A stretch of 64,000 nucleotides of DNA from a virus. The stretch is taken from positions 1 to 64,000 of the IMG/VR virus record IMGVR_UViG_3300010400_000002; one strand, written 5' to 3'. A model generated the notes under the pieces. That model saw nothing but the letters and a program-made list of their open reading frames with translations. It ran no database searches and was not told where the DNA came from. Both the position numbers and the translations under genes were made by a program. Below are positions 2,217-59,357 of this stretch, piece after piece (positions within the stretch are counted from its first letter, which is position 1; each line of letters begins with the position of its first letter).

Positions 2217-4196
2217 ATGCTTCACGAAAACGCTAAACCTAAACCGGAATATAAATACCAGCCTATCCTAAAATACGGCATTCCCAATATGTCACCGGAG
2301 TCGTTAGACTACGACAGGTTTTGGAGTGAAGAGAAGCGCCGCTGCATGGAAGGGTATAAACCACCGGACGGCGTTTGGATCCCGGGAACATATTATTACC
2401 ATCTCAACCACCGACCAATATCACGGCTGCGTTATGAGTTTGACCCGAAGGGATTGAATAAAACGATTGTAGCGCGACCACTGTACCGTGACGGTAATCA
2501 TTTCATCCATGAGAACGTAGATCGCAGGCGCAAAGAAAATAGAGGCGGTATCATCATCCTAAAAGGAAGGCAGATGGGTGTGACCGACGATATGGTAGGC
2601 ATCGTAGATCACACGTCACGATTCTTTATCTCAGCACAGTGTTGTTACGGCACTCCGGACCCTGACCAGTTGGCAAACTTCTACGTAAAGTTTGGGATAG
2701 GAAATGACGGCGTATCGGAAGCATTCTCGCAACCACTGAAAGTAAAAAATGTTGACCAGCGACAAATGGGGTTGGAGTATGACACCCCTTTCGGGAAGAA
2801 AACACTTGGCTCAGAGTCTATAATATTTACATCTGCTATTCCTAAGTCGGCAGTATTCAAAGGAAAGAACTTTGTACTCAGTGTTATTGATGAAGTGGGA
2901 ATGTTCGGCAAAGGCAAGAAAGAAAAAGATTTAGGAAAGGGAAGTCGCGCTGTAACGCTCTCACAATTTTGGGGTGACACCGTGGACTGTTGGAAGCGTG
3001 GTGACTCATGGTACGGGTTTCCGATTCTGCTCGGAACGGTAGATCAGATCAACTACGCTAAGAACACCGACCTCGAAAAGTTTTGGATGAATTGCGACCT
3101 ATATGATTTGGAGCGACTGCTACTGCCTGCCGACTATATGTATGGTGACTGCATAGACCTGCTTACAGGAATAAGTGACAGACCACGGGCACGAAACATA
3201 ATTCTGAAGAAGAGAAAGAAACTTGACCAGCTTGAAGATAAAACGGACTACTGGAAAGAAGTTCAGAACCATCCTCTCAATGAAGATGAACTGTTCCTTA
3301 TCACTATCAACTCGTTTGTCAATGCGATACGGGTGAAGGAGCAGATTATCCGCGTGAACAATAATCGCGCACTGCAAGAGCAGTGTATGGAAGGGGAACT
3401 GATTTGGGAGCGGGTGAATAATGACGGTAAGTTGGAATACACAGGAAAAGTTTTGTTCCTGGAAAAGCCTGGTGGGTTGTGGCGCAAGAATTTTGACCCT
3501 ATCAACTACCTGTATCCTGATACCGACATCGTGTGTGTGGATGACTTTATGAAAGATGATGCACCCAACTCAGAATCACTTGGTGCTATCGTGGCGTGGC
3601 GACGGTTTATCAACCTCGATCAGATTTGGAACATACCCACCATGACCTATTTAGGCAGACCGAAGGTGGAAGAGTTTCATGATGAAGCGTTGAAGTGTGC
3701 TGTATTCTGTCAGGCGCGGGCGGCGGTGGAAAAACTGAATGAGATGATGAAGAACCATTTCCTCAATTCAAAAAAAGTTGTTGGCGCTGACTACCTCAAG
3801 ATATTTCCGTTCGTCAATGGAAAGCATGTGAAACCAAGTGATGCCTATGGTTATGATATGCAGGCACTCAAGCCACAGTCAATACAACGAATTTGCAATT
3901 GGACGGATTCACCGTACATCGAAAACTGTTTTGATATCCGTTACCTCAAGAACATTGCAATCTTCGGAAAGCAGAACTCTGACTTAGGAAGTGCCACCGC
4001 TGTTGCTCTCGCGTGGGTAGATGACATGGCTGCTGTTCCGGTGCAGAAAGCCGATGAAGTTCAGGACGGGGCACAGGTGGGGTTGCAGTACCAATTCAAG
4101 AAGGACGGGCATTTGATCCAGATGGTGAACCGCAATGTGAATGATGGACGTGAGAAATTTCCTAAACTAAAATGGTTGAAAACTCAAAACGCATAA
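2217..4196 (+). CDS. terL: Terminase large subunit (crAss-related type)
   Basis: Walker A-like IIILKGRQMGVT, Walker B LSVIDEVG, C-terminal RNase H-like nuclease motifs (IVCVDD, SLGAIVAW, YLGRP); upstream of portal. Confidence 0.9.
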   Translation: MLHENAKPKPEYKYQPILKYGIPNMSPESLDYDRFWSEEKRRCMEGYKPPDGVWIPGTYYYHLNHRPISRLRYEFDPKGLNKTIVARPLYRDGNHFIHENVDRRRKENRGGIIILKGRQMGVTDDMVGIVDHTSRFFISAQCCYGTPDPDQLANFYVKFGIGNDGVSEAFSQPLKVKNVDQRQMGLEYDTPFGKKTLGSESIIFTSAIPKSAVFKGKNFVLSVIDEVGMFGKGKKEKDLGKGSRAVTLSQFWGDTVDCWKRGDSWYGFPILLGTVDQINYAKNTDLEKFWMNCDLYDLERLLLPADYMYGDCIDLLTGISDRPRARNIILKKRKKLDQLEDKTDYWKEVQNHPLNEDELFLITINSFVNAIRVKEQIIRVNNNRALQEQCMEGELIWERVNNDGKLEYTGKVLFLEKPGGLWRKNFDPINYLYPDTDIVCVDDFMKDDAPNSESLGAIVAWRRFINLDQIWNIPTMTYLGRPKVEEFHDEALKCAVFCQARAAVEKLNEMMKNHFLNSKKVVGADYLKIFPFVNGKHVKPSDAYGYDMQALKPQSIQRICNWTDSPYIENCFDIRYLKNIAIFGKQNSDLGSATAVALAWVDDMAAVPVQKADEVQDGAQVGLQYQFKKDGHLIQMVNRNVNDGREKFPKLKWLKTQNA

Positions 4197-20864: not shown

Positions 20865-23800
20865 TTGCCCTTCAAGAAAAATATAGCGACCAACACTTTT
20901 ACCCTTGGAATGCGCCAAGATCGGACGGTATTTGCACAAGATCGTCGCTCTTATCGCTCGGCACTAAATGGTAACATCATTTTCTCCGGGGCTGGTGATG
21001 CACAGTACTGTAATGAACCGGGTACTACACTACTCGATAACTCCGTTCCAGATGGATACTATATTGTAGGCAGCAAAGAAATACGGGATAAAACTGTAAT
21101 CATGTCCACCAATGATACCTTCAGCGAGATTGGATTATTGGAGTTGGATGTGACGGGAACGGTGGCTACCTACACAACTTTATTCAATGATGAATTTGAT
21201 CCCAATGGTGATAAACTAAATTTCGCCTCACAGGATTTTATCTTTCCTGCAGAGTCATGTTTCGAAACCATTGACAAGAACAGGGTCTATTGGCTCGAAC
21301 CGAACAATGAACCCAGGTGCTTCAACACACGGTTAGGAGATCAAGAAGTTTCACCTGAGTTCATTGATGGTTCCTATACTCCGCTTATCGCCACAGGAAA
21401 GTATCCTCATTTTTATTCAGTCCATTCCATGTCACTACAGGCAGATTTTAAAATGGGGAGATTGAAATTAAAAAACACAACGGCGGGAGGCTCATTAAAA
21501 ACTGGGATGTATGAATTGTGTTATCGTCCGGTTACAAGAGATGGATATGCGCCGCCGTGGACTCCATTGACGCGACACTTCTTTGTTACTCTCGACCCTA
21601 CTATTCCTGATCCGCTTACCAACTATCATTACCGTTCTATGTATGCTTCAAATGTGATGACCAACAAAGGTTACACATTTACGATTCATGGTGTAGATAC
21701 ACGGTTCTATCAGTTGGAAGTAGCGTATGTGTATAGCACCGACAAAGATGTAACGCAGGAAGCAAGCATTTTCTACCGTGAAAAAATTGATCCGGCACTC
21801 ACTGATGTTGACGTTGTATTTTCTTCTACTACTGGCATCGCTGTTTCATTCGCTGAATTTAATAGATACATTGTTCCGATTCGAAGAGGTAAGGCAATAG
21901 GGCAAAAAGATAAGCGACTGTGGGTAGGTGCGCCGGAAACTTACGGACCGTTCGAACTGGATTTATCAGGAGTAACAATTGCTCCGTTTATCCGTGAGAT
22001 GACTGTTGACACTCGCGAAGGCGCAACAACATTGCCGCTTACTAATATGAGTCCTACATCGAACGGAACCATTTCTATCGAGTCATATAAAAATAATGTG
22101 GGCGCGGCAGTCAATGAATCGTATGCAGTAATTGATGACTTTCCGAATTACAAAGGAGTACAGGGGGAACATTTACTTGCCTCGTATTGGGGTGGAGAAA
22201 CATATCCCCTATCGGTAGTAGTTTTTGATTTAAAGGGGAATCCATTTTATGCACAGCATATCATTGACTACACTTTTCCTAACCGTTATGACGATCCGTC
22301 GTATCACCTGATGACAACCATTGACGGAAAAATCAATATCATGGGAATGAAAATCTCAGGTATTGATTTGACCGACATATTATATGATGCGGATGGAAAA
22401 TTACAAGTAAGCGGTATTGCGATATGCCGTGGAAAAAGAATTCCGCAAACTCTCTTTCAGGGAGTGATACTTCCGGCAACGATTGAAGATAACCCTGATG
22501 CCACACATCCTATTGAACATACGAGTAACGACTTTCACGGTGCCGGTGCAGGCTTCGCCGATTCACTGAAGTATTGGGGGGGGGCAAGTATAGGGCAACA
22601 GATTAATTCACGTCCCTACACTTCGATGATTTATGCACCTGATATTTTGTTCGGGCGCAACATATATGAAGGAACAAGTCAGGATGACGTGAACGAAGAA
22701 ACCGATCAGCTTGAGTTGGTATCATTGTATGACTGTCCCTTTCAGGATAGCATCTATCCACGCACCATTGACCTGAACCCGGGACTCTCTGGCGGCATTG
22801 ATGGACTCGAAAAATTCTATACCAAGAATTATGAACTCAATGTTGACAACAAAAATTTCGAGTACGGATCAAAGTCACGTATAAAAAGATTACTGACGAT
22901 AGAGACCTTTAAAGAACAGGACACTGAATGGGATCACTACGATCAGGATGACCCTGATTTATTTTTCACCGACGACTCCAACTTCGACCCGCAAGATGCT
23001 TCAGGCTTTCCGAATATGCACTCACGCGGGGTAACATTATCGTGGCTGATTAAGAACAAAGACTTTAAGAATACCACGTACATGCCTTCTGACACGACTG
23101 GAGTAAATATTGACCGTCCCCGTTACTACACCGTCAACTACAAAATCAACAACGAAAAATATTTCACATCGCCTACACAGAAGTCACTTGCTGAACGGTT
23201 GTATATTGGAACCGGACATTTTCAACCTATCAATCAGGATGTGCTCGATGATATTGTAGATAGTGACGGACGCTATATTCTCAATGATGTAGAAGTGTGG
23301 GGCGGTGACTGCTACCCGTGGATTTTTGAATTCGTGCGTAACTATCCTGCATTTAGTGGTGACTGCTCAGAAGGTGACTATGCTATTGCGCACGTAGTAC
23401 CATTAGAAAGTTCGATGAACTTCGCACTGCGCCGTGGCAGAAGTTTCGGTGGTGACGGAATACGTAGTGAGCATGAAGCCTGCAATCCTCCACCTGCAGC
23501 ACAGTACTTTCCTAACGGAATTATGGAAGGGCAACCGGAAGAATTTAATCTCAATTCAGTGGTGATGCACGAAGGCAACGTGCAGATGTTTATTGCAAAA
23601 CCAGAAGTGATAGACCCTGAGATCACGCAATTCGACTATCGGTGGTTGTACAGCAACCTGAAAATATTTGGTGAGATCACCGACCAGTACCGCACATTCC
23701 TTACCAGCAACTACGGGGATATGGAACCCAACTACGGAAGGATTGTAGGACGTGGGTATTTATTCGAACAGATGTATTGTCTGCAGGAACGCGCATTCTC

Positions 23801-46051: not shown

Positions 46052-46453
46052 ATGGAGGAAGATCACTTAGAAGCAGCCGCGGCAGAAGAGAAATTTTCAT
46101 TCGATCTTCTTTTGGCAGTGTTTCAGAAGTTGCCGGATGCGATAGTTATCCTTAATGAGGACAGAAAGATATTCAGGGTAAACCCACAGGCAGAGCTATT
46201 GTTTGGGTATAATGAAATAGAATTAAAAAATAAACCCATTGAAATTCTTGTACCGGACTCACTGAAAGAACGCCACACTACGCATACTCAAACCTATGTA
46301 GATTCACCCTCATTACGTGCGATGGGAAGCGGTATTGAGTTGAAGGCAAAGAGAAAAAACGGAACAGAAATTCCTGTTGAAATAAATCTTAGTCCTGTGT
46401 CTACGGTTCGTGGTTTGTATGTGATTGCTGTAATCAGAAGAAAAGTAAAATAA
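46052..46453 (+). CDS. Stand-alone PAS domain (S-box) protein, FixL-like
   Basis: LPDAIVILNEDRKIFRVNPQAELLFGY...EILVP...RH...RAMGSGIELKAKRKNGTEIPVEINLSP. Confidence 0.9.
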   Translation: MEEDHLEAAAAEEKFSFDLLLAVFQKLPDAIVILNEDRKIFRVNPQAELLFGYNEIELKNKPIEILVPDSLKERHTTHTQTYVDSPSLRAMGSGIELKAKRKNGTEIPVEINLSPVSTVRGLYVIAVIRRKVK

Positions 46454-46833: not shown

Positions 46834-47079
46834 ATGAAACTACTTTCAATCTTACTCGCAATCTTCGCTGCACCATTCATGCAGGTAATCGGATTCTTCA
46901 TCGTCATCTGTATTGTTGCATGGGCATTATGGTGGCTGCTTACCACGGTAATCATTCCTCCGGCTCCGGCACCGCCGCGACCATTTAAGAACCTGGGCTA
47001 CATCATCTATGTGATCGTGGTGGCACTTATGTTTATTTGGTGGGTCAGTTTCGCCTTCGGGTTGGGGATATTTAATTAG
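46834..47079 (+). CDS. Small membrane protein
   Basis: Two to three TM helices around a Pro-rich linker; start approximate. Confidence 0.6.
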   Translation: MKLLSILLAIFAAPFMQVIGFFIVICIVAWALWWLLTTVIIPPAPAPPRPFKNLGYIIYVIVVALMFIWWVSFAFGLGIFN

Positions 47080-47115
47080 TGGTGGCAAATTTTTTAATCC
47101 TACATTTACAATCTC

Positions 47116-47487
47116 ATGGAGAAAGAAAACATCATCATTCACGTTCACAATGAAGGAATCATTGAGATAGGAATGATGTTGCAGAAGATTCTCCACTCAC
47201 AAGAAATTATTCTTCAAACTCTAAAACAAATTCAAATGACAAACGAAGAACTCAAAAAAGGACTCGATGATGTAAAAGCTACTCTCGACAGTATCGGTAC
47301 AGAGGTTGACAAAGTTGCAACCGAAACCAACACATTGAATTCAAAGATCGCTGATCTCGAAACTCAAATCGGGAATCTCGGTACTGTACCACAAGAATTA
47401 CAGGATGCTTTCAATGCGGTAAAAGATCAAGCCGGTGTTGTTGCATCTAAGGTTCAGGCGGTGGATGCTCTTGTGCCTGACGCGTAA
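47116..47487 (+). CDS. Coiled-coil protein
   Basis: Heptad-rich; last gene of the + strand block. Confidence 0.6.
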   Translation: MEKENIIIHVHNEGIIEIGMMLQKILHSQEIILQTLKQIQMTNEELKKGLDDVKATLDSIGTEVDKVATETNTLNSKIADLETQIGNLGTVPQELQDAFNAVKDQAGVVASKVQAVDALVPDA

Positions 47488-47514
47488 AGATTGTGTGTGT
47501 ATGTGTTTAGGAGA

Positions 47515-47546
47515 GCGGGGTGGCAAATCAGCACCCCGTTTTTTAT
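47515..47546 (+). terminator. Intrinsic terminator of the late (+) block
   Basis: CGGGGTG-loop-CACCCCG followed by TTTTTT. Confidence 0.85.
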
Positions 47547-47608
47547 TGAGGCAACTCAATCTGAAAGAGAAGTTTCTTTTGCTTCGGCGCAGTATCAATT
47601 CGGGGGGC

Positions 47609-47641
47609 AAAAAAAATGGATGATGTTTAGTCACCCATTTT
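47609..47641 (-). terminator. Intrinsic terminator ending the RAMP-array transcript
   Basis: On -: AAAAUGGGUGA-CUAAACA-UCAUCCA-U8; the G-U pair and U8 tract work only on the - strand. Confidence 0.8.
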
Positions 47642-48241
47642 AAACAGTACCATAGCGGTGCGAACCCAACCATGCCAGCGCCTAACAGAACCATATCCAA
47701 CAATACCGAGCCTTACACGATCACACCATACCGGCTTTCCAGCCCGTTCCATGCCATACCTCTACTTACATCAGCCAACCATACAGGACTAAAGCAAGCC
47801 ATTGCTAACCTATCCCGACCATACCGACTCTTTCGAGTCCGTACCCAACCGAACCATACCGAACACAAGCGAACCGCGCCGACGCCGAAGCTAACAATAC
47901 CATTCCCGATACTACCGCGCTCGACATAAGCTGACCAATCCATACCAAACCGGAGATAATTTTCCCGTTCCTTACCATACTCAACCGAACATTACCTAAG
48001 CCAGCCGTACCCTGCATAACCGAAGCTGACCGAACCGACTGAAATTAATCAGTCCGTACCACGCCGTACACTACCATTCCAAACAAAATTGAACCGTATC
48101 CCGCCATGCCGAATCGAACCTTACCACAACACACGGAACACCACCATGCACTACCATACCGGCTTTTAAAAAGCCCGCACCAAACCAAAACTCAGCTAAC
48201 CGGACAAAACCGAACTCCACATAACCCCGCCCCGGCAAACC
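47642..48241 (-). ncRNA. GGY-NN pentamer array: six putative guide-RNA units separated by five hairpins
   Basis: About 104 in-register pentamers (55 exact GGT/GGC by manual count; two 6-nt units); hairpins at 47733-47744, 47826-47839, 47952-47965, 48037-48054, 48161-48175. Confidence 0.85.
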
Positions 48242-48246
48242 GGAAT

Positions 48247-48873
48247 TTAATCTTCAATGACATCATAATTCTTAATAGCAAATCTTCCATATGACGGTCT
48301 GAAATCTCCAACGCCGCACAATCTTCCTGCCTGTACCAACGTGTCAATAAACAATGCCACATCAATATACTCAGGCAACTGAATCATGAATTGACATTTG
48401 CAAGTCCATCCTGATTTTAATGCAGGACGAGTGCGATTAATGCCTGACCGCTGAATAACAACACGCCGACGATCTTCATAATCCCATTCTTTCTTTCCTA
48501 AAGAGCAAAGTGGAGTTAATGAGATTACTCCTGCTTTGAATAAGTCCATTGCCGACTTACGAGGCGAGCGAGGGTCTTGTTTGAACTTTGATGCAGCGAT
48601 ACAACTCATGCGAAAATATTCACCCGGGATACAGAGAAATCCTTTATCATCCCGATAGACGTAGCTTTCGAGATCATCAGTTTTTTTAGCAGCAGAATTT
48701 TTTTTCGCTTTCGCTTTTTCATCTACTGCCTCTGCATTCCATCGGTGAAACAGCATGTCGGCTGTACCTTGAAATGTTACTTCAATCATGAACGGTTCTG
48801 AATGTTCAATGACTTTCTTTGCGCCGTTTGTTGGCTCACTCACATTCTTAGCGAGTGTTTTTGCTGTACTCAT
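48247..48873 (-). CDS. Stand-alone RAMP/Cas7-like RNA-binding protein
   Basis: IEVTFQGTADMLFH (beta-1), LCIPGEYFRMSC (cf. IPGSSLKG of Csm3/Cmr4-type RAMPs), RTRP, C-terminal Gly-rich loop AGRLCGVGDFRPSYGRF. Confidence 0.8.
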   Translation of the reverse strand: MSTAKTLAKNVSEPTNGAKKVIEHSEPFMIEVTFQGTADMLFHRWNAEAVDEKAKAKKNSAAKKTDDLESYVYRDDKGFLCIPGEYFRMSCIAASKFKQDPRSPRKSAMDLFKAGVISLTPLCSLGKKEWDYEDRRRVVIQRSGINRTRPALKSGWTCKCQFMIQLPEYIDVALFIDTLVQAGRLCGVGDFRPSYGRFAIKNYDVIED

Positions 48874-48889
48874 AATTATGAAATTAAAA

Positions 48890-48991
48890 AGCCCCTACGA
48901 CAAATGGTTCAAACCTTCACCGTTAGGAGAAAGTACATCTGCTTTCAGGGCTGTTTGGAAATGTCGTGATTGACACGATGAAAGTTTGAAC
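48890..48991 (-). promoter_or_regulatory. Structured 5' leader of the RAMP gene
   Basis: 16-bp stem GUUCAAACUUUCAUCG/CGGUGAAGGUUUGAAC plus alternative pairings AGCCCU/GGGGCU and ACGACA/UGUCGU. Confidence 0.7.
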
Positions 48992-48995
48992 GAGG

Positions 48996-49028
48996 CAAAT
49001 ATAAGGTGAGGGTATTACTAAATGCAAA
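48996..49028 (-). promoter_or_regulatory. Bacteroidota primary-sigma promoter for the RAMP-array unit
   Basis: TTTG (49028-49025), 21-nt spacer, TATATTTG (49003-48996); matches TTTG-N19-21-TAnnTTTG. Confidence 0.75.
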
Positions 49029-55802: not shown

Positions 55803-56762
55803 TTATCGTGTTCTTATGAAGTTTTCCAATTCCTCAATATCCCCCTTCTCCCGTGTAACCATCTCCTTATATTTCTCAACATCAATCTGCTGCTGTATGT
55901 GAGATTCGATAATCGAAGTAAGAACCTGGGGCTTCAGCGCATCTACTTCCCAGCAGGTCTTTCCAAATTTAGCAATGTACTTATCACTTCGTGAATCAGT
56001 AAGTTTCGTAGGGTTAGGTGGCAGTTTGTATTTTTTGATTTGCTGCATCGTCAAACCAATCTGGATGATTTGAAAAATGTCAGAAGCAACCAAATGGTAC
56101 TCTCCCTGCTCAATCATGAAAGTTAATCGTTCACTTATATCACGAACCATATCTAACCCACTTGGGTCGTGATCTCCAAAATAAAGAATCGTAGTCATCC
56201 CTTCGTGAAGGCTGTTATTTAAAATGCGATTGTAGGCACTATACATCGCACTGGAAGAACTGTAACCTTTGTTAATGATTAGTTGGATGTGATACTTTTC
56301 GGTACTGCGTCGTAGTATTCCTGCAAGTGCATCTTTCTCGCTCCAAAGTTCAACGTGATTTGATTGTCCTTCTTGTCGGTCTAACCTATATTGGTCAATC
56401 GTGTCCTGTAACGCATGTTCAACACTGTTAACCGAATAAGGAATGTACGGTACTCTTCCGCGATCTTCAATAGCACCCCAATCAATGGTTCCACTGTAAC
56501 GGCAATCATCAACAATATCTCCCAATTTTTTATACGCTGTGATATGGTTTATGAATCCTTCTACGTGACCTACGAATTGATAATGAAGCTGCCGGAGAGT
56601 TAGAATATAACCTTCTGCTGCGTACTCATCTACGATGGATATTATGTTGGCTACAACATCCTCCTTTCTTGTGCGCCACCATTTGATACTGCCGTCATCA
56701 AATTTGCAGCATACATTTATAGCGCCCGTTAATTTCCTATCTTCAAATTTCTCTTTAGCCAT
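55803..56762 (-). CDS. TopoVI-A/Spo11-like winged-helix plus Toprim protein
   Basis: LTLRQLHYQ, ELWSEKDAL, GYSS, YFGDHDPSGLDM, WEVDAL; start MAKEKF at 56762 (the longer ORF overlaps the tRNA-like gene). Confidence 0.8.
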   Translation of the reverse strand: MAKEKFEDRKLTGAINVCCKFDDGSIKWWRTRKEDVVANIISIVDEYAAEGYILTLRQLHYQFVGHVEGFINHITAYKKLGDIVDDCRYSGTIDWGAIEDRGRVPYIPYSVNSVEHALQDTIDQYRLDRQEGQSNHVELWSEKDALAGILRRSTEKYHIQLIINKGYSSSSAMYSAYNRILNNSLHEGMTTILYFGDHDPSGLDMVRDISERLTFMIEQGEYHLVASDIFQIIQIGLTMQQIKKYKLPPNPTKLTDSRSDKYIAKFGKTCWEVDALKPQVLTSIIESHIQQQIDVEKYKEMVTREKGDIEELENFIRTR

Positions 56763-56766
56763 TTCG

Positions 56767-56852
56767 AAGCGAAGGGGGAACTCGAATCCCCGACCTATGC
56801 AGACCCACTCCACGTAGAAACTGCGTCGCTCTACCAACTGAGCTACTTCGCT
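56767..56852 (-). tRNA. tRNA-like gene with an enlarged anticodon arm (anticodon uncertain; UCU/Arg in the standard register)
   Basis: Acceptor AGCGAAG/CUUCGCU, D-arm GCUC-AGUUGGUA-GAGC, T-arm GGGGA-UUCGAGU-UCCCC; 18-nt anticodon loop; no encoded CCA. Confidence 0.7.
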
Positions 56853-57721: not shown

Positions 57722-58126
57722 TTAATTGGAATTAACACGGTTAAACTCATTCTTCAAGGCACTAACAGAAGTCCTCACAAAATCCAACTGGTGAGTAATA
57801 GTCCGGCTTAATCTCTCTGCAACATTGTAAGCATACTCCGATTCGCTGCACTTAGCGGTGATATAATCCTTCACCACACTTGCCGGAACCCACTCCAACC
57901 GTCGCGCCTCCACGTTGAAAACAAATTGCTCATACGCTTTTGCTTTCTTATCACTCCACACCTTTTTGAATTCTGCCATCTGCGAATTGGTATAAGCCAT
58001 GTAACCGGATAACTGAGCTCCGTACTCTATCCATTGGTCAATAGTGGATAGTGACTGCATCGTTTCGGAGCAGAGGATACTTTCGATCTTTTTTAATTCT
58101 TCCAGGTGGTCAATCATCGGATTCAA
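57722..58126 (-). CDS. Helical protein in the recombination operon (UvsY-like?)
   Basis: 134-aa coiled coil next to exonuclease and Sak4-like genes. Confidence 0.4.
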   Translation of the reverse strand: MNPMIDHLEELKKIESILCSETMQSLSTIDQWIEYGAQLSGYMAYTNSQMAEFKKVWSDKKAKAYEQFVFNVEARRLEWVPASVVKDYITAKCSESEYAYNVAERLSRTITHQLDFVRTSVSALKNEFNRVNSN

Positions 58127-59357
58127 CTTTAGAGGAATAGAAATTAGACCATTCTTCTTGTGACTTAAACTTACTGTGATATTCCTTACCGTTCCAAATT
58201 AATTTCCAATCATTCCAATCAACATCATCAGATGGAAGATCATAAGCATCTACACCGAAAGTATTAGCACCTAATGAGGTTGCAAATTGTAATGTAAAAG
58301 GAAAACATTTCAGGTTGTTTGCTGCAAGTATTTTAAAGCCATGCTCTAAAATATCAATAACTTCTTTCTCAGATTTGTCATTTCCTAAAATCATTTTCAA
58401 TCGTCCTGAGTGAATGAAGTTATGACAGTAATGACACAATGGTTCAATGGAAAGTATCTCACATATACCAGTGCGATAGTCAATTTTCCAAAACTCATGT
58501 GCTTCTAACCACTCATGTTTTTTTGCTTGGGATTTATGAATGCCGCAGGCAGCGCAATGATAGTCAGTTGAAGCATATACTAATTGGCGTTCACTATTCC
58601 ACCAATCATCTCCCATAATTTCTCTTGGGGCAACTCCATGAAGCGGTTTAGGGATATGAGGGTGGCACAGTATTTCAGGTTTAAGAATTTTCCTTACCGG
58701 CGTTCCTGATTTTACGATCTCATTCCAATCATCAATCATTCCATGCACTTTGATGAAGTCCACAAATCCTTTAAGTGAATGGATAAGTTTCGTTTCGTAA
58801 GCTGCATCCCACTCGAAAGGAAATTCTTCATGGGTGATGGTAGCTGATAGTTCTTTCTTCTCCTGAATGAAAAATACATCGTAACAGAACATCGGAACAT
58901 CAGCCATGAACATATACCATAGGTGCTGTGTCTTATCCATGTACGCTTCATAGGAAGGCTTGGTGCGCGTTGTTTTAAAGTCGTGAATAATCCCGGGGCA
59001 CAAGCAATCTACTTTCCCCCTCACGTTGCAGATGATTCCGTTGACCTCAATTTCTTTGTTCACCCAAACTTCTGTCGCATTGGGTGTTGGTAGCGTTTGA
59101 TGGAAGTCAGTGAGAACTTTGAGAACATCATTTGAAAGAAATTCTGCCTCTACGGTAATCCCTCCATACGCTTGCGCATATTCGTCGAATGGGTTTTCAA
59201 GAAACTTATGTACCGCCGTTCCAAAGTCTTTCTCAAAAGTTTTCTGATCTCTCCCTTCAAGGTAGTCAATAAACTTCTGTTGGTCAAGTCCCCACTTTTC
59301 AGCAAGGAAGTCATCGAACCGTTCCAACTTAGACACGGAGATATTAAGCGATAGCAT
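58110..59357 (-). CDS. PD-(D/E)xK exonuclease-like domain fused to an HNH endonuclease domain
   Basis: ISVSKL, FGTAVHKFLE, RGKVD, DFKT, QHLWY; then CAACG...LEAHEFW...LCHYCHNFIH. Confidence 0.75.
   Translation of the reverse strand: MLSLNISVSKLERFDDFLAEKWGLDQQKFIDYLEGRDQKTFEKDFGTAVHKFLENPFDEYAQAYGGITVEAEFLSNDVLKVLTDFHQTLPTPNATEVWVNKEIEVNGIICNVRGKVDCLCPGIIHDFKTTRTKPSYEAYMDKTQHLWYMFMADVPMFCYDVFFIQEKKELSATITHEEFPFEWDAAYETKLIHSLKGFVDFIKVHGMIDDWNEIVKSGTPVRKILKPEILCHPHIPKPLHGVAPREIMGDDWWNSERQLVYASTDYHCAACGIHKSQAKKHEWLEAHEFWKIDYRTGICEILSIEPLCHYCHNFIHSGRLKMILGNDKSEKEVIDILEHGFKILAANNLKCFPFTLQFATSLGANTFGVDAYDLPSDDVDWNDWKLIWNGKEYHSKFKSQEEWSNFYSSKVESDD

Follow-up and report, generated by a model that had tools for sequence, protein, structure and literature searches.

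Results

A strict five-nucleotide register on the minus strand

What does a stretch of viral DNA encode when it falls into pentamers, each made of a nearly constant trinucleotide and a freely varying dinucleotide? An original prediction, made by reading the sequence of IMG/VR record IMGVR_UViG_3300010400_000002, had described a strict 5-nt register of this kind and had proposed that phase and scaffold are conserved while the information sits in the dinucleotide. The window that we analyzed is the first 64,000 nucleotides of this record. Base autocorrelation of the array gave an identity of 0.41 to 0.43 at lags 5, 10, and onward to 30 versus 0.19 to 0.30 at other lags. The period-5 spectral power rose to 10 at the array, ∼15 times the window median of 0.68 (99th percentile, 2.5), and nowhere else in the 64 kb did it come near that value. 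A phase-tracking parse placed 103 GGY-NN pentamers on the minus strand, in six tracts of 13, 21, 14, 22, 16, and 17 units. The register is thus borne out by lag identity, spectral power, and parse, and the tract lengths are the plus-strand run lengths given earlier (18, 16, 22, 14, 21, and 13) in reverse, with 17 units for the 18. The scaffold triplet is exactly GGY in 55 of the 103 units and one base off in 43; the earlier count had been about 55 of 104 exact ACC/GCC triplets, with most others differing by one base. Two 6-nt units were found, at 47677–47682 and 47881–47886, precisely the slips that had been claimed, and the remaining phase breaks are short hairpins between tracts. Read modulo 5 on the minus strand, pentamer positions 1 to 3 are G/G/T with entropies of 1.30, 1.33, and 1.35 bits, and variability is concentrated at positions 4 and 5, which are nearly free (1.84 and 1.95 bits).

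The array sits in a 760-bp noncoding gap between convergent genes: the plus-strand late block ends at 47487, and a minus-strand gene, named vipr below, occupies 48247–48873. No ORF longer than 85 aa runs across it. Because two positions in each pentamer are free to vary, the array gave no repeat in Tandem Repeats Finder. A blastn search of positions 47000–49000 against GenBank phages gave no match, and no second array was found upstream of vipr or elsewhere in the 78-kb genome. In Rfam, neither the array nor eight related loci matched any family, apart from one tRNA in locus L097. The features of the region are as follows, in the order of the minus strand.

48247–48873, minus strand: vipr gene; 208-aa Cas7-like RAMP protein, putative RNA-binding and DNA-targeting subunit
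47647–48246, minus strand: predicted VIPR guide-RNA array; six GGY-NN tracts with inter-guide hairpins
48177–48246, minus strand: vrRNA 1 repeat tract; 13 guide units plus tail unit GGTGC, beginning directly after the vipr stop codon
48161–48176, minus strand: inter-guide hairpin 1 (tail); −8.3 kcal/mol by RNAfold, 6-bp stem, closed by AC...GU of the flanking units
48056–48160, minus strand: vrRNA 2 repeat tract; 21 units including tail unit GGTAC
48037–48055, minus strand: inter-guide hairpin 2; −10.3 kcal/mol by RNAfold, z −4.0
47967–48036, minus strand: vrRNA 3 repeat tract; 14 units including tail unit GGAAC
47952–47966, minus strand: inter-guide hairpin 3, weak; −4.1 kcal/mol by RNAfold, no better than shuffles
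47841–47951, minus strand: vrRNA 4 repeat tract; 22 units, one of 6 nt at 47881–47886
47826–47840, minus strand: inter-guide hairpin 4 with GAAA loop; −9.1 kcal/mol by RNAfold, z −3.1
47746–47825, minus strand: vrRNA 5 repeat tract; 16 units including tail unit GGAAC
47733–47745, minus strand: inter-guide hairpin 5 with GGAA loop; −8.1 kcal/mol by RNAfold, z −2.4
47647–47732, minus strand: vrRNA 6 repeat tract; 17 units, one of 6 nt at 47677–47682
47609–47646, minus strand: terminal hairpin followed by a run of eight U; 11-bp stem by RNAfold, −13.3 kcal/mol for the 57-nt stretch folded, z −2.0

At their 3′ ends the tracts close with a GG(T/A)(A/G)C unit and then a hairpin of 13 to 19 nt. The stems differ in sequence and the flanks AC-G...G-GU are kept; by RNAfold, four of the five internal hairpins reach −8 to −10 kcal/mol. 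Each repeat tract is thereby capped by a structured 3′ tail. The terminal hairpin with its U run is likely to be the end of a vipr-array transcript; a scan for consensus terminators called neither of the hairpins that flank the array. Since the first tract begins one base after the vipr stop codon, gene and array look, from their position and strand, like one transcription unit.

The neighboring gene encodes a putative Vipr protein

VIPR (Viral Interference Programmable Repeat) is a viral DNA silencer that resembles CRISPR and was first reported in preprints of 2026 (bioRxiv 10.64898/2026.04.26.720920, 10.64898/2026.04.26.720927); a third VIPR preprint is bioRxiv 10.64898/2026.10.15.759431. 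Vipr is a lone RAMP protein that polymerizes on vrRNAs of GGY-NN pentamers, one protomer per unit, burying GGY and presenting NN for gapped pairing with DNA (10.64898/2026.04.26.720920; 10.64898/2026.04.26.720927). According to the VIPR preprints, double-stranded DNA is read by the NN pairs with a skip of one base in each unit, usually at the wobble position, and this binding leads to repression of transcription. vrRNA genes are recognized there as at least 4 tandem GGY-NN (YNNGG) pentamers in intergenic DNA on either flank of vipr. The residues that hold GGY in SUSP1 Vipr are H17, R138, D177, W178, and R179, with K33 for the skipped base, and silencing by SUSP1 is lost on GGY substitutions. 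Type II VIPR, found in Escherichia phage SUSP1 and in a Pseudomonas fulva prophage, consists of Vipr, vap1, and vrRNAs; the published account also includes stand-alone vipr genes, vap being typical, not universal. As natural targets, the preprints give satellites, prophage regulators, and rival VIPR loci.

A profile of 32 homologues of the 208-aa protein, run with hmmsearch against PDB sequences, matched 36pp_D, "SUSP1 Vipr protein", with an E value of 6.5e-10 (profile positions 59–201 to chain residues 36–188); the relation was not detected by tblastn, the identity being too low. In this alignment of the profile with SUSP1 Vipr, the G-loop GVGDFRP.YGRF is matched to GVGDWRPRFGRF residue for residue. 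SUSP1 R138, D177, and R179 correspond here to R149, D190, and R192, each invariant among the 32 homologues, and W178 aligns to F191, also aromatic. H17 and K33 fall outside the aligned stretch. The AF2 model (pLDDT 83.4, pTM 0.76) has an RRM core, a thumb hairpin, and a G-loop, the thumb corresponding to beta-hairpins 132–152 and the G-loop to helix 172–185 with the loop before strand 198–206; it is a RAMP fold without a second RRM. Its best Foldseek matches are type VII Cas7 and type III Csm3, with E values of 6e-7 to 1e-5 and a TM score of about 0.55. On profile and model together, the product of 48247–48873 is a predicted Vipr protein with a Cas7 fold. It belongs to phrog_4652, of unknown function, and Pfam, NCBIfam, and PADLOC have no family for it. 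Its homologous clusters number more than 6,600, none of them named. This Vipr clade is very large, very widespread, unnamed, highly conserved, and distant from SUSP1 Vipr.

Among GenBank phage records, a single close homologue was found, at 22435–23043 of OR003939.1 (Phage DSL-LC04), with 65% identity; it is annotated "helix-turn-helix transcriptional regulator", which looks like a misannotation. We considered and rejected a CRISPR-Cas identity for the locus: there is no direct-repeat array, and the lone vipr is the only RAMP gene. A weak PHROG match to "CRISPR/Cas system associated" at 58110–59357 lies within an HNH protein.

Related loci keep the scaffold and exchange the dinucleotides

We examined 89 loci with a vipr homologue, 19 from IMG/VR and 70 from GTDB genomes, whose Vipr proteins are 50 to 67% identical to that of the phage. 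Their hosts include Pseudomonadota, Planctomycetota, Cyanobacteria, Acidobacteriota, Bacillota, Bacteroidota, Patescibacteria, and one archaeon, among others. In 86 of the 89 loci, a GGY-NN array on the same strand lies within 400 nt of vipr (upstream in 31, downstream in 15, and on both sides in 40). The pooled logo of 112 arrays from these relatives is G 0.82, G 0.74, and Y 0.83 for the scaffold, followed by 1.98 and 1.99 bits for NN. No guide is common to the phage and any of the 89 relatives, and none of the relatives' vipr loci is a target of the phage guides. NN therefore turns over with GGY retained, and a scaffold that recurs with unrelated NN beside vipr upholds the earlier view that this is not a decayed satellite. 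Substitutions by phase in related Phycisphaerae arrays (G1 0.03, G2 0.09, Y3 0.14, N4 0.13, N5 0.11, with gaps of ∼10 nt) carry little weight, as the fixed windows used for counting partly overran the arrays.

The tails of the relatives vary by clade, being longer hairpins or ∼55-nt spacers, and in the relatives tested the guides had no hammerhead between them. Their vipr neighbors are AAA_24/Sak4-like, RusA, and helicase genes. In the phage, vipr closes the early replication block and its neighbors encode an MT-A70 methylase and an HNH protein. None of the relatives' neighbor families (89 loci) has a member in the phage, and tblastn of their representatives against the phage genome returned nothing; hence, no accessory vap gene was recognized.

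Several of these loci have peculiarities of their own. At L002:2445–3212, and also in L003 and L004, all from IMG/VR, the guides are parted by structured ∼55-nt spacers instead of short hairpins, with no ribozyme or other family found in Rfam. L116, on the Bathyarchaeia MAG contig CAYNQC010000002.1, holds at least eight separate same-strand GGY-NN arrays over ∼5 kb, far above the number at bacterial loci. L102:2306–2861 is a 555-nt GGY-NN array on the strand opposite to vipr, the only such locus of the 89; it could represent a second unit in inverted orientation or a solo array. L060 and L061, from a Stenomitos rutilans MAG, are two vipr loci of identical array layout that share one cyanobacterial scaffold at a distance of ∼100 kb, perhaps as a pair of related prophages or through a duplication.

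The phage genome

The large terminase (2217–4196, plus strand) is 23 to 37% identical to terminases of crAss-like phages, and the late block contains two giant genes, of 2368 and 1369 aa. A tyrosine integrase was not found in the genome. The phage looks like a soil relative of the Crassvirales, with a possible host among the Bacteroidota. Of the sequencing runs, one DNA run, a soil metagenome, lists this sequence and may be its source; no run of RNA does. Two further genes caught our attention. Where the late block ends, in a group of genes for small membrane proteins, positions 46052–46453 (plus strand) encode a 133-aa protein that consists of little more than a PAS domain (Pfam PAS, E 4e-13), a sensor-type domain unusual for a phage. 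At 56766–56852 (minus strand), ARAGORN called a tRNA-like gene with a four-base anticodon (tcta) that overlaps the start of the topoisomerase-like ORF 55803–56837; it may be a false call or a frameshift-suppressor-like tRNA.

Predicted targets of the guides

We sought targets under the published 1-nt-skip rule, and the results given here are computational matches. Within the phage's own 78,308-bp genome, the best NN match of any guide was 0.73, giving no self-target. At an NN match of 80% or more with the skip on the wobble base, as defined for natural targets, we found matches for guides 1, 3, and 5 (26/26, 25/26, and 27/30, respectively). In the matches of all three guides, which are in frame, the skipped base is codon position 3.

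Read antisense, guide 1 spells A-K/N-K/N-S-Y-G-K/N-D/E-P-Y-P-P-K/N. An 18-base seed of this guide found 10 IMG/VR loci versus ∼1 expected (scaled from 19 chance hits of a 16-base seed), and all 10 are at the 3′ end of genes ending ...SYGNDPYPPKG. The 13 NN pairs correspond to positions 1 and 2 of the last 13 codons of DUF2188 genes, with 26/26 in loci L041 and L049, a count that takes in one unit 5′ of the boundary first drawn. We estimate the chance expectation of a 26/26 match in IMG/VR at near 2e-5. In 6 of the 13 units the scaffold is not GGY, and all six lie within the perfect match. The target genes match Pfam DUF2188 (E 1e-24) and the PADLOC candidate PDC-S16 (E 4e-38). DUF2188 has been linked to defense operons with HTH and metallopeptidase regulators (10.1101/2022.04.27.489752). 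The phage's own genome has no DUF2188 gene, and guide 1, with up to three mismatches allowed, matched none of 121 genomes from the order to which the genome with the guide 5 match (see below) belongs. In the GC-rich proviruses L041 (3902–5111) and L049 (182–1389), the DUF2188 gene is short, AT-richer, and directly downstream of a gene with a Bro-N domain (anti-repressor-like), and it looks like a moron-type insertion.

For guide 5, we found 27/30 NN in one of 401 Bacteroidota genomes, in frame within a gene for a 97-aa HTH_17 protein; the reversed control pattern gave 0 matches, and the estimated chance expectation in the genomes searched is ∼3e-4. IMG/VR gave 0 matches for this guide, and no other guide matched within the 80 kb around the site. 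Together with the guide 1 result, this makes the C-terminal motif of DUF2188 and the Bacteroidota HTH_17 gene the predicted targets of guides 1 and 5.

Guide 3 matched 25/26 and 24/26 NN in six metagenome contigs, on the stretch ...LMHELYHVLYD... of 400-aa Xre/M78 peptidase genes, which is the HExxH catalytic block of one peptidase family. One of the target proteins passes the Peptidase_M78 cut-off, and two resemble PD-lambda-2B (E 1e-18 and 1e-21), which in an abortive-infection system is the toxic Xre-peptidase component (PMC9519451). We regard the guide 3 match as no more than suggestive, since ∼0.06 chance matches at 25/26 are expected in a database that large by our estimate. A 9-dinucleotide seed of guide 3 in IMG/VR and an 11-dinucleotide seed in GTDB genomes each gave 0 matches.

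The remaining guides yielded no convincing target: the 68 matches of guide 2 did not extend beyond about 0.6, guide 4 had 0 matches in IMG/VR, and all 19 matches of an 8-dinucleotide seed of guide 6 in IMG/VR were at chance on extension. No contig was matched by two guides. The matched genes come from organisms other than the host of the phage, those for DUF2188 being in GC-rich proviruses.

Discussion

Taken together, the register, the neighboring Vipr homologue, and the related loci indicate, with a probability of roughly 93%, that a soil phage of 78 kb, with direct terminal repeats, carries in this region the vrRNA array of a VIPR system. VIPR as a kind is already known, and the locus adds another system to it. 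The idea that the information resides in NN is supported by the Vipr homologue next door, the relatives' logo, the lack of common guides, and a guide 1 that spells a protein motif base for base, and it matches the experimentally shown mechanism of VIPR vrRNAs. The code proposed in the original prediction therefore stands; the system and its protein partner had not been named there.

We infer transcription, processing sites, and RNP formation in the phage. Judged by position and strand, the minus strand would be transcribed with vipr or just behind it. As read directly from the sequence, the transcript would carry six guide RNAs, each a GGY-NN run with a closing GG(U/A)(A/G)C unit and a short hairpin, the last followed by the hairpin with its U run. 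By homology to SUSP1 Vipr, seen by cryo-EM, one protomer would sit on each pentamer with GGY buried and NN exposed. The exposed NN would pair with double-stranded DNA, passing over one target base in each unit, usually that at the wobble position, and the bound complex would repress transcription, as has been shown for SUSP1. The reading of DNA by NN is supported here because three guides decode in frame to conserved protein motifs.

Several points count against this assignment. The scaffold triplet is not exactly GGY in 48 of 103 units, while GGY substitutions abolished silencing in SUSP1. Published type II vrRNAs have 9 to 16 repeats; by our parse three tracts are inside this range and three are above it, the longest with 21 and 22 units. 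Further, the phage has no recognized vap gene, the matched genes come from other organisms, and guides 2, 4, and 6 are without a target.

What the system would act on is a separate matter. Since the code reads only codon positions 1 and 2, a guide directed at an invariant protein motif can reach a whole gene family across divergent alleles. Guide 1 would spell the C-terminal signature of DUF2188 (PDC-S16), guide 3 the HExxH site of Xre-M78 peptidases like PD-lambda-2B, and guide 5 the region of the recognition helix in an HTH_17 regulator from Bacteroidota elements. From these decoded motifs we tentatively suggest that the phage VIPR may act as an RNA-guided counter-defense that silences host- or island-borne genes of immunity and mobile-element control, as opposed to one rival phage. 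Defense genes as targets of phage-borne VIPRs are not described in the three VIPR preprints (10.64898/2026.04.26.720920, 10.64898/2026.04.26.720927, 10.64898/2026.10.15.759431). It is also possible, with a chance well short of even, that the array is a genuine VIPR array for which the DUF2188, M78 peptidase, and HTH_17 matches are not working targets, the real ones being unsampled rival phages or host satellites. Such targets would agree with the satellites, prophage regulators, and rival VIPR loci of the published systems, with the foreign origin of the matched genes, with the statistically borderline match of guide 3, and with the failure of any two guides to converge on one contig; they are harder to reconcile with matches as improbable by chance as the 26/26 of guide 1 and the 27/30 of guide 5.

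Readings in which no guide is present fare far worse. A DNA-level element, such as a replication origin, a packaging site, or a two-tier G-quadruplex tract, would suit a junction of late and early modules, and a GG every 5 nt could, in principle, form two-tetrad quadruplexes. However, the relatives' arrays keep the strand of vipr and move with it, upstream or downstream, inside replication modules, and neither a quadruplex nor an origin explains the conserved pyrimidine at position 3 or the codon-like NN series; we regard this reading as very improbable. Bacillus TRAP binds the (G/U)AG-NN repeats of the trp leader with one subunit per 5 nt; the spacers of this leader are without information, and it acts as a regulatory target rather than as a guide. 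The triplet with a 2-nt spacer in our array resembles these repeats, and a sponge or ring-binding site could be imagined in which a protein sits on the triplets and the spacers mean nothing. We give this little credence, as the partner has a Cas7 fold and is a Vipr homologue, not TRAP, and the spacers are informative, with three guides decoding in frame to conserved motifs. Lastly, a decayed or drifting pentanucleotide satellite without function would fit a noncoding gap between convergent late and early operons and the deviation of half of the triplets from GGY, but it is scarcely credible given the blank Tandem Repeats Finder result with two of five positions unconstrained, the recurrence of the scaffold, with unrelated NN, beside vipr and on its strand in 86 of 89 loci of many phyla, and an NN series that spells a protein motif at 26/26.

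VIPR is a newly described form of RNA-based DNA recognition, and bench study has so far covered only the type II systems of SUSP1 and P. fulva. With the array read as vrRNAs, a protein with only a remote relationship to SUSP1 Vipr appears to follow the 1-nt-skip, wobble-aligned code, and units that depart from GGY still carry in-code NN, as in 6 of the 13 units of guide 1. If the counter-defense suggestion is true, the role of VIPR widens from conflict between phages to counter-defense.

Comparison with known systems places the locus as follows. It shares with TRAP a conserved triplet plus a 2-nt spacer and, by homology to SUSP1, one protein subunit per 5 nt, whereas the Vipr protein is unrelated to TRAP. 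[quoted passage not shown] In contrast to class 1 CRISPR, the period is 5 nt and not 6 nt, three guide bases per unit would be flipped out and not one, and the window has no repeat-spacer array, cas1/cas2, Cas6, Cas5, or other cas gene. Compared with SUSP1, the protein is distant, being found by profile only and not by tblastn, W178 is replaced by Phe, and the structured 3′ tails differ in form, being 13- to 19-nt hairpins of variable sequence with conserved flanks in place of an invariant pseudoknot of ∼40 nt. Unlike type II VIPR, the locus parses into tracts of 13 to 22 units versus 9 to 16, nearly half of its scaffold triplets are one base off GGY, no vap gene is recognized, and its predicted targets are defense-linked and mobile-element gene families, not satellite or prophage switch genes. 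Like type II VIPR, it combines a small stand-alone RAMP protein bearing the conserved G-loop and thumb arginine with same-strand GGY-NN arrays beside the gene and a structured 3′ tail on the repeat tracts; it likewise shows no self-targeting, its predicted code skips one base at the wobble position, and it is carried by a phage.
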